From: a virus
Length of the DNA: 64,000 nucleotides
Virus record (IMG/VR): IMGVR_UViG_3300046777_001387
Span: 1-64,000 of that record
Strand: one strand, 5' to 3'
Positions 4,955 through 39,268 of this stretch are shown here, piece after piece (position 1 is the first letter of the stretch; every line of letters starts with the position of its first letter). A program made the position numbers and the translations under genes. The notes under the pieces were generated by a model. That model saw only the letters and a list, made by a program, of their open reading frames with translations. It searched no databases and was not told where the DNA came from.

Positions 4955-5618
4955 TCATATTCACCATGACTTTCCCAAGCTTCTTCAGGAAAACGTTGAT
5001 GGCACTCGATGCTATGTGACGCCGGATGGGAAGAAGTATCCGTCAGTCACTACGGTTCTTTCTGACTATGGTAAGGAAGAACTAAATGCTTGGAAGGCGA
5101 GGGTGGGTGAGAAGGAGGCAGCGCGTGTTTCGCGAAAGGCGACCACTCGGGGAACTGCAGTTCACGCTGCCATTGAGCACTATCTCCATAACAAGGATAT
5201 CTCTGAGCTAGAGATGCTTCCTAACGTTAAGGAGATGTTTGTTAAGATGAAGCAGGAACTGGTGAAGCTTAACAATATTCACTGCCTTGAGACTAAGCTG
5301 TTTTCGCACGAACTCCGGTTGGCTGGGACGGTTGACTGTATTGCTGAGCACAATGGAGTTCTATCGGTCATTGACTTCAAGACTTCGCGTCGGCTGAAGA
5401 AGAAGGAATCTATTCAGCACTACTTTATGCAGGGTGCTGCATATGCCCATATGTTCCGGGAAATGACTAACCTAAATATTCAACAGGTTGTCATCCTCAT
5501 CGGAGTAGAGGGAGTTCCTTTCTGCCAGACGATGAAAGTTGATCCGAATGACCATATCGATGAACTTAAGAAGTATATTACACAATACGAAAATCGTCTT
5601 TTCGAAGGAGTTGCATAA
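4947..5618 (+). CDS. PD-(D/E)xK exonuclease of T4-like phages
   Basis: YPSVTTVL, RGTAVH..IE, LAGTVDCIA...IDFKTS, YFMQGAAYA. Confidence 0.9.
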   Translation: MFNHIHHDFPKLLQENVDGTRCYVTPDGKKYPSVTTVLSDYGKEELNAWKARVGEKEAARVSRKATTRGTAVHAAIEHYLHNKDISELEMLPNVKEMFVKMKQELVKLNNIHCLETKLFSHELRLAGTVDCIAEHNGVLSVIDFKTSRRLKKKESIQHYFMQGAAYAHMFREMTNLNIQQVVILIGVEGVPFCQTMKVDPNDHIDELKKYITQYENRLFEGVA

Positions 5619-5935
5619 TGATCGATCTATCAGCTGTTGACCCAGTGCTTGCTGGTGCTGTATTAGTTGGCGGTATGACGCTGGCTGTCGTTGCAAAGGT
5701 TCTGAATTCTTCTGCTCATAATAGCGTGCAGCCAGAGGTTCTTCCGGATCCAGCGCCGGAGGCTGTTGTGCAGGAACCTGTTATTGCAGAAGAAAAGTAT
5801 TCTTCAGGCTATCAAACCTCTTCTGCCGGTGTTGTTGAGGTTCCAGCAGAACCAACTCCTGCACCAAAGAAAGTCGCAAAGAAGAAGTCCCCTGCCAAGA
5901 AGAAGTCTGTAAAGAAGAAGTCGAAGGAGAACTAA
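5618..5935 (+). CDS. Membrane-anchored protein with a Pro/Glu linker and Lys-rich tail
   Basis: N-terminal hydrophobic helix; stop/start overlap with the previous gene. Confidence 0.7.
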   Translation: MIDLSAVDPVLAGAVLVGGMTLAVVAKVLNSSAHNSVQPEVLPDPAPEAVVQEPVIAEEKYSSGYQTSSAGVVEVPAEPTPAPKKVAKKKSPAKKKSVKKKSKEN

Positions 5936-5936
5936 T

Positions 5937-6140
5937 ATGTTAGCCACTATTATGACTCTTGTAGTTGTTTCACTTATTGTAGTATTCCTAGTGCTCCGAG
6001 CGAAGAAAGAACCACGTGGTCCTTCCAAGCTTCCAACTGCACCTCCGGGTGGCACCACTTATCAGGAGCCTGTTGAGAATTATTCTGATGGTGGTTCGGA
6101 TCCTACCAGAGATCCAGTCACGGGTGAACCGAAAGGTTGA
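5937..6140 (+). CDS. Small single-pass membrane protein
   Basis: GGAG SD; N-terminal TM helix. Confidence 0.7.
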   Translation: MLATIMTLVVVSLIVVFLVLRAKKEPRGPSKLPTAPPGGTTYQEPVENYSDGGSDPTRDPVTGEPKG

Positions 6141-6143
6141 TGC

Positions 6144-6362
6144 ATGATATTTGCTATGTTTCTGTTATGGATCAGCAGTATGCTGATGATTGAAAGAATG
6201 AAGCAAAGGGATAATAAGCGAAGGATTGAACTTGAGCGAAGGTATGAAGAGGTTCTCGATCAGAAAAGAAAACAGATCGAAGCTTTCCAGCCAACGCTAG
6301 AGTCTAAGTCTAGATGCGTATTTTCTGCTGACAGAAATGTAGAGTATATCTTTAAGGAATAA
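6144..6362 (+). CDS. Small membrane-anchored coiled-coil protein
   Basis: N-terminal hydrophobic stretch, then a charged helix. Confidence 0.55.
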   Translation: MIFAMFLLWISSMLMIERMKQRDNKRRIELERRYEEVLDQKRKQIEAFQPTLESKSRCVFSADRNVEYIFKE

Positions 6363-6610
6363 TGGTAGTAAACTCTTAGCTAAAGGTGTTTCGGACGCGG
6401 GTGCGATTCCCGCCACCTCCACCACTACGGGGGTGACCAGTTTTGACGGGACAAGTAATAACCTCGGAGCTACCAGTGAGGCGACTGACTTAATCAGCGC
6501 AAACAAAGTAAACGCAAACGATGATGTTTACGACATGGCTCTAGCTGCTTAATAGCAGTCTAGGTTCCTGAGTTTTCGGTGGGTTTTCTTGGAAACAGAA
6601 TAAACCCACC
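6362..6610 (+). ncRNA. ssrA: Circularly permuted (two-piece) tmRNA, tag ANDDVYDMALAA
   Basis: T-arm GCGGG-TGCGATT-CCCGC plus CACCTCC-A-CCA (ends 6424) precedes the 5' strand GGGGGTG (6429). G3:U70 pair. Tag ORF 6514-6552 ends LAA-stop. Confidence 0.93.
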
Positions 6611-6627
6611 TCTACTTAAGGTGCAAA

Positions 6628-6810
6628 ATGACAGAAACACACAAACGCACACTCGTCCGCGCTGCCTGTTGGCGATTAGTTGCTACGCTTATCACTGCTA
6701 TCTGGACTGGTCTTGAGGGTGCTATCGTTATCAATATCTTCATGACACTTGCGCACTATATTCATGAGCGGCTGTGGCTCAAGATTCGTTGGGGCAAAGA
6801 GCAAGTCTGA
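6628..6810 (+). CDS. DUF2061-like small membrane protein
   Basis: ETHKRTLVRA..WRLVAT and YIHERLWLKIRWG motifs. Confidence 0.8.
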   Translation: MTETHKRTLVRAACWRLVATLITAIWTGLEGAIVINIFMTLAHYIHERLWLKIRWGKEQV

Positions 6811-6818
6811 GTCTGAAG

Positions 6819-7580
6819 ATGGATGTTCGTGTTTATCAGGTGTACTTCCGAGAGGATCAGCTGAGTCATCTTGACTCAGCCTTCGTTCCGTTCGCTAATC
6901 TCGAGAATACCAATCCAGAACTCAGAGAGTATCCGCTACTGAAGAGCCTGTACTCTATGCAACAGCCTGAGTATTGGGGTATGGTTAGCTGGCGATGGAA
7001 AGAGAAGACTGCGCTCGAAGGGCGAATGTTCCTTGATTGGATTGCAGATAACGCAGGATACGATGTGTATCACATCAATCCTTTCCCCGAAGTAGCAGCT
7101 AATCATCCAAACATCTTCCACCATGGTGAAGTTGTACACAAGGGAATGATCCCTTGCGTGGAAAGACTTATGCGGCTCATGGGACTAGATCGCATAGATC
7201 TACTGCACTCTAGTTTCCCAGTACGATACAACAGCACGTGCCATTTTTATATCGGCAACTCTAGCTTCTGGCAAGGATGGATGGAGTTTGCTGCTGAGTG
7301 TAATTCTGTTGTGCAGAAAGATGAGCTTCTATATGACTTCATGCACGTGCAGCGTAGTCGCCACAGAAAAGAACACTTGATCAACTATTCGTTTGTGATG
7401 GAACGATTGGTAAACCTGTATATGATCATCAACAAGGTTTCGGTCAAGTATTACCCATACGAAAAGTTAAACAACACTAAAGACACAAAGAAACGCGCTG
7501 AAGAGTTGCAAGTGATTGCTCTCAAAGAGTCTGACGTGTTCTACAAGACTCCAGACCGCAATAAGCCATTATGGTGGTGA
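6819..7580 (+). CDS. Hypothetical protein, possibly glycosyltransferase-like
   Basis: VYQVYF...NTNPELREYP...WGMVSWRW..KT...FVMERL resembles a family near glycan genes in large phages (recall). Confidence 0.45.
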   Translation: MDVRVYQVYFREDQLSHLDSAFVPFANLENTNPELREYPLLKSLYSMQQPEYWGMVSWRWKEKTALEGRMFLDWIADNAGYDVYHINPFPEVAANHPNIFHHGEVVHKGMIPCVERLMRLMGLDRIDLLHSSFPVRYNSTCHFYIGNSSFWQGWMEFAAECNSVVQKDELLYDFMHVQRSRHRKEHLINYSFVMERLVNLYMIINKVSVKYYPYEKLNNTKDTKKRAEELQVIALKESDVFYKTPDRNKPLWW

Positions 7581-7584
7581 TGTC

Positions 7585-36772: not shown

Positions 36773-39268
36773 ATGGCAAGTACAACAAATATTTCGCAAG
36801 TAGTTACCGCCAATACTTTTGGTCAGTGGAGAATCCAAACCAATCTTTTGGTTAATGATCTCAACGAGGTAACTCGCGGTGAGTTTGTGAAGCCTACTGG
36901 TAACACAACATTTACTGTCGGAAGTCTAACTCTTGCAAACGCGACAGGAACCATGCTTACGGTTACTGCGGACGCTCGTATTTCTGGCAAGCTAAGTCTT
37001 AGAAACTACGAGCAGGACGGCGGTAACTCGTATTTGTATTCTCAGAGTCCAGATATTCAGTTCCAGAATGCTAACGTTATCTTTCAGGTTGCTGGAAATA
37101 CTAGAACCAGATTCCTGTACAATAATACTTTCTCAAGCCTAGCCAACGTCAATGCCAATGGTTATATTGAGACCACTGGCACGTTTGCAAACAATGGCTT
37201 GATTATGAACGTCGCCAACGTACTTACGGTGCAAACTGCATCGGGTCAGGCGAACGTTAATGTTTCCACCAACGTAACTGTTTCAAGAAACACCACGACG
37301 GGTAATCTGAGAGTTATTGATAGAGCCGATATTTCTTTGGCAAATATCGGCACTGCCTACGTCGACACTCTGTACGTTACTCAGCCGATTATTGCTCCTT
37401 CGGAAAGCGACACGAACCAGTATCGCCTGCGTGCTACATCGAATGATCGCGGCGACGGTTTCTTTGGTGTGAGACTGGGAACCTCGGCGAATGGTAATGC
37501 TTGGATCAGATTCGACACTACTTCAGGCAACGTTTGGAGAGCAACTTCAAACAGCACCGAAGGAACTTATTACACGCTGCTGACTATGCAGAATGTGATA
37601 ACTTCCACTGCATGCACTAGCACTTCTGATGTGGCTTCAGCTGCTTCTGTTAAGCAGGTGTATGACCTAGCGATCGCTGCCGCAGGATCTAACGACGCTG
37701 CAAATACTGCCGCAAATACCGCAAGAGTTTCTGCTAACGGTGGAAGCTCTTTGGCAGCGCGCCAGCTAAACTTCGTCAATACTTCTACTGTATCGGTTAC
37801 TGTAACTTCAGGCGCTGGTGCTGCTGCTGGTAATGCCAATATTGCTCTGAGTGTTATCGGTGCTATTGGTGCCCAAGGCGCGCAGGGCGCTCAGGGTGCC
37901 CAAGGCGCTACCGGTGCAGGAACTCAAGGTGCTCCCGGACCACAAGGTGCTGTTGGATTGCAAGGTCCACAAGGCGCTCTCGGACCGGGAACTCAAGGCG
38001 CTCCCGGACCACAAGGTGCTCAGGGCGCGCAGGGTGCTCGCGGCGGTGTGCCTTATGCATTCTCCAACTCAACCACCGATAGCGATCCTGGTAACGGAAC
38101 AATTCGTTACAACAACAGCACAATTGGTTCTGTTTCTCAGTTGTTCATTGACTCTCTGGACAGAACAGGCGTAACTCAGACTGCATGGTTTAATTCTTGG
38201 GACGATAGTACGAACTCTGTAAAGGGATTTGTTACTATTAGAAGTGCCGTAGATTCTGGCGTAGTTACAAATGTGTTCAAGATCACTGGCGCTGTTACTG
38301 CAGCAACTGGTTACCATAAGATTCCTGTGACCTATGTCAGCGGCAGTATCCCATCCAACGGATCTGAGTTGGTTATGGAGTTTTCTCCAGCCGGTGATAT
38401 TGGTCCCGGAACTCAAGGCGCTCCCGGACCACAAGGTGCTCAAGGTGCTCAAGGCGCACAAGGCGCAGTTGGTCCCGGAACTCAAGGTGCTCCCGGACCT
38501 CAAGGTGCTGTTGGATCGCAAGGTCCACAAGGCGCTCTTGGAATAGGAGCGCAGGGTGCTGTGGGTGCCCAAGGAGCAGTTGGACAGGTTGGCGCGCAAG
38601 GTACACAAGGGGCTCGCGGCGCACAAGGTGAAAGAGGTGTTCAGGGTGCACAAGGAGCGCCAGGAACTCAAGGTGTACAAGGAGCAACTGGATTTGGTGC
38701 CCAAGGATACCAAGGCGTGCAAGGTGCTGTTGGTCAAACTGGTCCACAAGGTCAAATCGGTCAAACTGGTCCGCAAGGCGTGCAAGGTGCTGTTGGTCAA
38801 ACTGGTCCACAAGGTCCACAAGGACAAACAGGAGCCTCTGGTCCAAGCACTGCAATTAATGCAACTCTAGTTTCCTCTGGAACTTATTACCTTGTTGGCG
38901 TTGGTGGATCTGGTACTAACCACACCCCAGCTGTCCAAGGAAGCATAACCTATAACGGTTCGAACGCCACGATTTATGCATATGACTTCGCTGCAACTTC
39001 GGATGCCACGCTGAAGAACGTTATTGGTTCGATTGAAGATCCTCTGTCCAAACTACACGGCATTAATGGCGTTCGATTCTATTGGAAGTCTGACGTTGAG
39101 CAGATTAAGATGGAAGTCGGTCTGTTGGCGCAAGAAGTCGAAGCAGTTCTACCAAGTGCAGTTGTCCATAATAATGGAAACATGTACGTTCTCTACGATA
39201 AGATTGTTCCGTTGCTAGTTGAAGCAATTAAAGAACTCGAAGCCAGAGTTAAGAAGTTAGAGGGGTAA
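36773..39268 (+). CDS. Tail fibre with collagen-like segments and a C-terminal peptidase S74 chaperone
   Basis: NTF.QWR..TN N-terminus; GXQ repeats; SDATLKNVI...GLLAQEVEAVLP...YDKIVPLLVEAIKEL. Confidence 0.85.
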   Translation: MASTTNISQVVTANTFGQWRIQTNLLVNDLNEVTRGEFVKPTGNTTFTVGSLTLANATGTMLTVTADARISGKLSLRNYEQDGGNSYLYSQSPDIQFQNANVIFQVAGNTRTRFLYNNTFSSLANVNANGYIETTGTFANNGLIMNVANVLTVQTASGQANVNVSTNVTVSRNTTTGNLRVIDRADISLANIGTAYVDTLYVTQPIIAPSESDTNQYRLRATSNDRGDGFFGVRLGTSANGNAWIRFDTTSGNVWRATSNSTEGTYYTLLTMQNVITSTACTSTSDVASAASVKQVYDLAIAAAGSNDAANTAANTARVSANGGSSLAARQLNFVNTSTVSVTVTSGAGAAAGNANIALSVIGAIGAQGAQGAQGAQGATGAGTQGAPGPQGAVGLQGPQGALGPGTQGAPGPQGAQGAQGARGGVPYAFSNSTTDSDPGNGTIRYNNSTIGSVSQLFIDSLDRTGVTQTAWFNSWDDSTNSVKGFVTIRSAVDSGVVTNVFKITGAVTAATGYHKIPVTYVSGSIPSNGSELVMEFSPAGDIGPGTQGAPGPQGAQGAQGAQGAVGPGTQGAPGPQGAVGSQGPQGALGIGAQGAVGAQGAVGQVGAQGTQGARGAQGERGVQGAQGAPGTQGVQGATGFGAQGYQGVQGAVGQTGPQGQIGQTGPQGVQGAVGQTGPQGPQGQTGASGPSTAINATLVSSGTYYLVGVGGSGTNHTPAVQGSITYNGSNATIYAYDFAATSDATLKNVIGSIEDPLSKLHGINGVRFYWKSDVEQIKMEVGLLAQEVEAVLPSAVVHNNGNMYVLYDKIVPLLVEAIKELEARVKKLEG

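Follow-up and report, generated by a model that had tools for sequence, protein, structure and literature searches.

Two-piece tmRNAs of phages and bacteria

The tmRNA releases ribosomes that have stalled, and genes for its two-piece form have been described in phages: the OM43 phage Melnitz carries one, and ARAGORN made 53 unique two-piece calls among 18,146 phage genomes (PMC9004378), so that the find of such a gene is not in itself new, contrary to what an earlier reading of our locus from its letters alone (the sequence-only reading) had suggested. A tmRNA database paper of 2025, which is the source of the Rfam family tmRNA_permuted (RF04321), reports 79 phage tmRNAs (PMC11915505). The same paper records beta-type permuted tmRNAs at low counts in genomes binned to phyla that otherwise have standard tmRNAs, with 23 in Bacteroidota, 7 in Bacillota and some in archaeal bins (PMC11915505), and scattered beta-type genes in such bins could be phage or prophage contigs.

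The gene analysed here lies in a 64,000-nucleotide stretch of DNA (the window) that covers the opening 64 kb of an IMG/VR virus record of 83,696 bp, for which CheckV estimates a completeness of 47%. A distant BLAST search led to two further beta-type permuted tmRNAs, both absent from the annotated features of their records, in Stenotrophomonas phage DLP_6 (locus L002, 2982-3203; KU682439.2; tag ANDDSFAPMAIAA) and Xanthomonas phage XacN1 (locus L003, 3003-3302; AP018399.1; tag ANANTFDYALAA). Together with Melnitz, these phages resemble that of the window in that a permuted tmRNA is encoded by a large lytic myovirus with no phage smpB nearby, and DLP_6 and XacN1 further share with it the beta type and AND...AA tags, whereas the tmRNA of Melnitz is reported to be of the alpha type and to lie under a glutamine riboswitch (PMC9004378). 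The spacer between the two pieces measures 31 nt in DLP_6, ~120 nt in XacN1 and 4 nt in the window, and the tmRNA genes of DLP_6 and XacN1 stand beside tRNA arrays, whereas the window contig is without tRNA genes. The hosts of these two phages belong to the Xanthomonadales and have tmRNAs of the one-piece kind, and as both phages nevertheless carry the beta type, a beta-type tmRNA alone cannot name the host of a phage. We also observed a full-length GOLLD RNA (RF02032, 227 bits) in the jumbo phage XacN1 (locus L003, 4342-4755; AP018399.1, ~38570-38983), which lies among the tRNA genes ~1 kb downstream of the tmRNA and is unannotated in the record.

Among bacteria, the beta-type tmRNAs of Rhodocyclaceae, such as those of Accumulibacter (L050) and Dechloromonas (L087), match the window gene in gene order, in overall length and in a spacer of 3-4 nt, and have in common with it the T-arm and acceptor sequence, the inter-piece helices, the hairpin of the pseudoknot-1 region, the context of the resume codon and, after the tag, a pseudoknot candidate with an AACAGAA loop. 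Accumulibacter-type tmRNAs share an identity of ~75-79% with the window gene over ~134 nt. The Rhodocyclaceae genes differ from it in being equipped with a promoter and a GC-rich terminator hairpin of their own, neither of which the phage gene has, and in their tags, which are ANDERFALAA or ANDEQFAIAA versus ANDDVYDMALAA in the window. Their T-loop UUCGAUU goes with UGG in the D-loop analogue, whereas the window has UGCGAUU and CAG, and the hairpin UCCGG/CCGGA of their acceptor piece is degenerate in the phage.

A permuted tmRNA gene in an uncultured freshwater phage

Analysis with ARAGORN called a permuted tmRNA with the tag ANDDVYDMALAA, and two Rfam covariance models placed the gene far above threshold. 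The model tmRNA_permuted (RF04321) matched over its full length (1-213) with 142.8 bits and an E-value of 4.5e-28 at a gathering cut-off of 47 bits, and beta_tmRNA (RF01850), the best among the tmRNA models of the clan, with 110.5 bits and an E-value of 9.5e-33 at a cut-off of 84 bits. These results uphold the proposal that the locus encodes a circularly permuted tmRNA. Bacterial members of RF01850 score far higher than the window gene (222-244 bits versus 110.5), and the promoter and GC-rich terminal hairpin of RF01850-type genes are both absent from it. Read along the + strand, the gene follows the two-piece order, with the T-arm and the acceptor 3' strand with its CCA (ending at 6424), the intervening segment CTAC (6425-6428), the acceptor 5' strand GGGGGTG (from 6429) and the tag frame, and every feature listed in the sequence-only reading was found in its proposed place. 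Taken together with the conservation described below, the locus is best explained, in our view with good confidence, as a genuine and selected two-piece tmRNA gene of betaproteobacterial type that belongs, as a fixed and syntenic element, to the genomes of an uncultured group of related freshwater T4-like phages.

The source of the gene is an uncultured freshwater T4-like phage. Its T4-type neighbours are phoH, an exonuclease gene and the genes for the gp59 helicase loader, the gp32 single-stranded DNA-binding protein (SSB), the baseplate hub, gp5 and gp6, and the presence of gp32, gp59, gp5, gp6 and baseplate hub genes of T4 type on an IMG/VR virus record bears out the description of the tmRNA as phage-encoded. 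The nearest relatives of the contig's gp32 are found in pelagimyophages and cyanomyophages. The sequencing runs matching positions 5600-7600 of the window were two freshwater DNA metagenomes, possibly the source sample, and zero RNA runs were listed. A search of the whole 83.7-kb contig for smpB (PF01668) returned no match, an absence that holds at the level of the fragment since the contig is only ~47% complete, and this agrees with the dependence on host SmpB that had been proposed; the absence of tRNA genes from the whole contig in ARAGORN likewise applies to a fragment of ~47% completeness.

Within the contig, the tmRNA gene occupies a 265-nt gap between two + strand ORFs, and the TAA stop codon of the upstream ORF (6360-6362) abuts or overlaps the start of the acceptor piece, the first helix of the RNA setting in one base past this codon. 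A scan of the + strand near the gene revealed neither a sigma-70-type promoter nor a terminator. The DNA upstream of the tmRNA is coding and unrelated in all phage relatives, and the start of the RNA is marked by the conserved TAATGGTWGTAAAC. The tmRNA gene seems to be without a promoter of its own and to abut or overlap a coding gene. The same-tag phage contigs, which came from a search for the tag, keep the synteny of phoH, exonuclease, tmRNA, gp59 and gp32. As a separate observation, the TAA within the conserved TAATGGTWGTAAAC start (6360-6376 in the window, and in relatives) often serves as the stop codon for the ORF that lies before the gene.

Structure and covariation

The features below all lie on the + strand. 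The acceptor piece (6363..6424), recognised by direct reading, ARAGORN, Rfam and covariation, contains a T-stem of GCGGG with CCCGC (6397-6401 with 6409-6413) and the T-loop TGCGATT (6402-6408), both read directly, followed by the acceptor 3' strand CACCTCC (6414-6420), the discriminator A73 (6421) and the encoded CCA (6422-6424). The intervening segment CTAC (6425-6428) would be at once the 4-nt leader that RNase P removes from the coding piece and a 3' trailer on the acceptor piece. The start of the coding piece (6429..6475) comprises the acceptor 5' strand GGGGGTG (6429-6435), the D-loop analogue ACCAGTTTTGAC and, for each inter-piece helix, the 3' strand, whose 5' partner lies in the acceptor piece. 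The two acceptor strands form 7/7 pairs, and the acceptor stem of 7 bp that had been proposed, with G3:U70 as the identity pair for alanine, could be read directly.

Pairs were counted for a structure that we specified, in an alignment of 36 short-spacer genes (9 viral, 27 bacterial). This revealed that 94.4% of cells were paired, versus 40-52% when the partners were slid by one to three columns, and that 14 pairs had changed on both sides, which was matched in 0/500 shuffles. G3:U70 was invariant, with the G:U in 36/36 genes. In the inter-piece helices, TGGTAG pairs with CTACCA (6363-6368 with 6470-6475) and TGTTTCG with CGGGACA (6387-6393 with 6447-6453), and both covary (window 6364-6368/6470-6474 and 6387-6393/6447-6453): in alignment A3, pairing reaches 93% for helix 5-9/117-121 and 98% for helix 30-36/93-99, with 4 two-sided changes in each. 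The pairings TGGTAG/CTACCA and GTTTC/GGGAC that had been assigned to helix 2 therefore stand on covariation, but AGGT/ACCT does not stand as a conserved helix; it can form in the window and is missing, by eye, from several close relatives.

Further downstream, a second alignment comprising 16 close phage relatives was used. In the pseudoknot-1 region, a hairpin with the strands GCG-A-CUGA and UCAG-CGC and the loop CUUAA (6481..6500) has 100% of its cells paired in this alignment, with 3 compensatory pairs, and is homologous to Accumulibacter sequence. An alternative pairing of CAG 6475-6477 with CUG 6485-6487 would make a pseudoknot and uses the same nucleotides as the hairpin. The tag frame (6514..6555) opens with the alanine resume codon GCA at 6514 and encodes ANDDVYDMALAA, which ends in the ..LAA degron and is followed by the double stop TAA and TAG (6550-6555). 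The reading of a tag ORF with its stop inside a hairpin holds, with the frame at 6514-6549 and ARAGORN in agreement, and a search for the tag found the same or a near-identical one in 21 further viral contigs, with the frame intact. The hairpin itself, of helix-5 type and with the stop codon in its loop (6541..6563), is supported by the fold and by alignment; its core CUGC/GCAG (pairs 116-119/126-129) is kept wherever the sequences have letters, and the outer pairs, CUAG/CUAG, occur in the window only.

Alignments with bacteria and with phage relatives define an H-type pseudoknot candidate downstream of the tag (6568..6610). Its stem 1 joins CUGAG with CUUGG (6568-6572 with 6588-6592), and its stem 2 joins GGUGGGUUU with AAACCCACC (6578-6586 with 6602-6610), the latter enclosing the conserved loop AAACAGAAU (6593-6601), in which the AACAGAA motif is the same as in the Accumulibacter and Dechloromonas genes. 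Stem 2 is 98% paired, and 3/4 of the pairs shared with relatives, in which the helix is a shorter GACC/GGUC, are compensatory, while stem 1 is 81% paired and without covariation. The terminal hairpin placed at 6578-6610 by the sequence-only reading thus exists as a helix, although it is better regarded as stem 2 of this candidate, and the accompanying view that the gene leaves no room for pseudoknots 2-4 is only partly right: the RNA is reduced, but the helix at 6578-6610 has its homologue in stem 2 of a pseudoknot candidate that is conserved. One pseudoknot is probably retained downstream of the tag. As a separate terminator is absent after it, 6568..6610 probably forms the 3' end region as well. 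In the Rfam alignment, 6578-6610 was matched with the terminator hairpin of bacteria; we rejected this assignment, and our own alignments place these positions with the AACAGAA-loop helix. Considered as a whole, the tmRNA of the window is real, conserved and probably functional.

An altered T-loop and D-loop analogue

The T-loop TGCGATT, confirmed at 6402-6408, reads UGCGAUU in the window RNA versus UUCRANY in the canonical form. A scan for GTGCGA-type T-loops adjoining ..TCCACCA (viral loci L168-L283) revealed that YAG replaces the YGG of UUC-type genes in the D-loop analogue of 74/74 unique viral tRNA-like domains with a UGCGAnn T-loop, in which G occupies the Psi55-equivalent position. The D-loop analogue of the window (6436-6447) has CAG, and its sequence CAGUUUUGAC shows two departures from the UGGUUUCGAC consensus. 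In tRNAs, G18 and Psi55 form a tertiary contact, and by analogy the combination of UGCGAUU with YAG looks like a compensated version of such a contact. UGCGAUU is a common variant rather than a sequence error. One alphaproteobacterial gene (L027) also pairs a UGCGAnn T-loop with YAG.

Short spacers in bacteria and in other phages

The sequence-only reading had drawn attention to the 4-nt spacer. We scanned IMG/VR, and one genome per prokaryote species, for a T-arm and acceptor motif with GGGGRYG no more than 30 nt downstream. In IMG/VR, spacers of 4-6 nt were present in at least 9 other phage contigs from several lineages, and the short phage spacers read CTAC, CAAC, ATAC, ATGG, ACTAC, GCATGC and GCTTAG. 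Among the 120 prokaryote matches listed, 58 had a 4-nt spacer and 3 had a 3-nt spacer, and the short-spacer bacterial loci, where their titles name an organism, belong to Accumulibacter, Dechloromonas, Azonexus, Sterolibacterium and Rhodocyclaceae or betaproteobacterial MAGs. ANDERFALAA-type tags (ANDERFALAA or ANDEQFAIAA) were found in 54/54 of the short-spacer bacterial loci listed that ARAGORN could call, in the same gene frame as in the window, and some Accumulibacter MAGs have the identical CTAC spacer. As the gene of Ca. Accumulibacter phosphatis (NC_013194.1), which has a 4-nt spacer, scores 222.4 bits for beta_tmRNA and that of a Dechloromonas MAG 243.6 bits, the short spacer is found among core members of the curated family. 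A 4-nt spacer is the normal state of the cellular beta-type tmRNAs of Rhodocyclaceae, and with its occurrence in several phage lineages the impression that it is exceptional is corrected. The phage origin, the 4-nt spacer and the small size of the window gene are all already common in public data, which makes it one more clean example in a large recognised set of phage two-piece tmRNAs.

Proposed processing and action

The tmRNA would be transcribed within an early or replication-gene transcript. In this precursor, the acceptor stem would close an 8-nt loop made of ACCA and CUAC, and, by the simplest route, host RNase P would be expected to cut between C6428 and G6429. A single cut would then give the coding piece its 5' end and yield an acceptor piece with a trailer of 4 nt, which host 3' exonucleases may trim to the encoded CCA. 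A near-precedent for this arrangement is the E. coli valV-valW transcript, in which a 4-nt spacer is processed by RNase P alone, independently of RNase E (PMC2190699). There, as proposed here, 4 nt lie between a CCA end and the RNase P site that follows, and the 3' end is completed by exonucleases (PMC2190699), but in valV-valW the CCA and the cleavage site are on two different tRNAs, whereas in the window the CCA and the cleavage site share one acceptor stem in the 8-nt closed loop. The CCA that RNase P normally reads is here tethered 4 nt from the cleavage site, and the valV-valW geometry is not exactly alike. The question that had been raised about how RNase P and 3' trimming deal with such a spacer thus has a near-precedent in valV-valW. 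As the closed loop is the same in Rhodocyclaceae cells, it is not a puzzle specific to the phage.

After cleavage, the two pieces would be held together by the inter-piece helices 6364-6368/6470-6474 and 6387-6393/6447-6453, for which covariation was found above. By the established tmRNA mechanism, the RNA would be charged with alanine through G3:U70 and bound by host SmpB, and ANDDVYDMALAA would be added to stalled nascent chains and lead to their degradation by a ClpXP-type protease. That a phage tmRNA of this kind might act against mRNA- or tRNA-cleaving defences is speculation.

A different role would be that of a decoy or modulator, in which the RNA soaks up host SmpB or alanyl-tRNA synthetase, or re-labels stalled host proteins, and thereby redirects host trans-translation. 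Such an effect has been described for mycobacteriophage DS6A, whose tmRNA consists of the tRNA-like domain only and is reported to inhibit the endogenous tmRNA (PMC4131195, PMC11915505), and it would suit both the lack of an encoded SmpB on the contig fragment and a tag, ANDDVYDMALAA, that is unlike the host-type ANDERFALAA. The window gene, however, has a complete and conserved tag frame with a canonical ALAA end and a resume-codon context like that of bacteria, which point to real tagging, and a decoy would have no need of an mRNA-like domain and pseudoknots; we therefore consider this role unlikely.

We give still less weight to the idea that the gene was recently captured from a host and, as a neutral passenger or a pseudogene in decay, plays no part in infection. 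Its identity of ~75-79% over ~134 nt to Accumulibacter-type tmRNAs, its 4-nt spacer, which it shares with them, in some cases down to the exact CTAC, and the lack of the bacterial promoter and GC-rich terminator hairpin could all be read in this way. However, many diverged phage contigs have the gene at one conserved, syntenic place, compensatory changes keep its helices and 21 contigs have an intact tag frame, and as the identity to any bacterial copy found is only 75-79%, a capture would not have been recent. An origin as an integration-site remnant, in which a tmRNA fragment is the attP-type sequence of a temperate element, would draw on the frequency with which tmRNA genes serve as integration sites and prophages carry fragments of them (PMC9004378, PMC4131195), but we rejected it as highly improbable because both halves and the full tag frame are intact, the 3' structures are also present and T4-type replication and baseplate genes surround the tmRNA.

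A polymorphic spacer in the same-tag phage clade

The spacer of the window gene varies among close relatives. In the same-tag contigs the spacer measures either 4 nt or 44-90 nt, so that a bare tetranucleotide and hairpin-bearing forms exist side by side in one phage clade. Four contigs (L147, L154, L157 and L160) have the 4-nt spacer CTAT, and L147 and L153 share the same T-arm and acceptor stem with spacers of 4 (CTAT) versus 82 nt. In five contigs (among them L149, L148 and L153) a long inverted repeat, for example AAAGCACACTG...CAGTGTGCTTT, closes the long spacer into a hairpin, after which comes a short tail of CTAT, CTGAT or CCTGAT, and further long spacers likewise end in CTAC or CTAT. 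The 4-nt form resembles this tail standing by itself, and tmRNAs that are nearly identical differ in whether the hairpin is present.

One tentative reading of this pattern, which we regard as possible without favouring it, is that the 4-nt spacer is a bare RNase P leader and represents the "empty site" of a modular spacer, from which sister genes differ only by an inserted hairpin cassette. If so, the clade would provide natural before-and-after pairs for cargo entering or leaving tmRNA spacers, and the precursor with the 8-nt closed loop would be a minimal natural substrate of RNase P that has its own CCA tethered to the leader. We also observed that the hairpin cassette stands directly after the CCA in contigs L148, L149, L153, L163 and L164.
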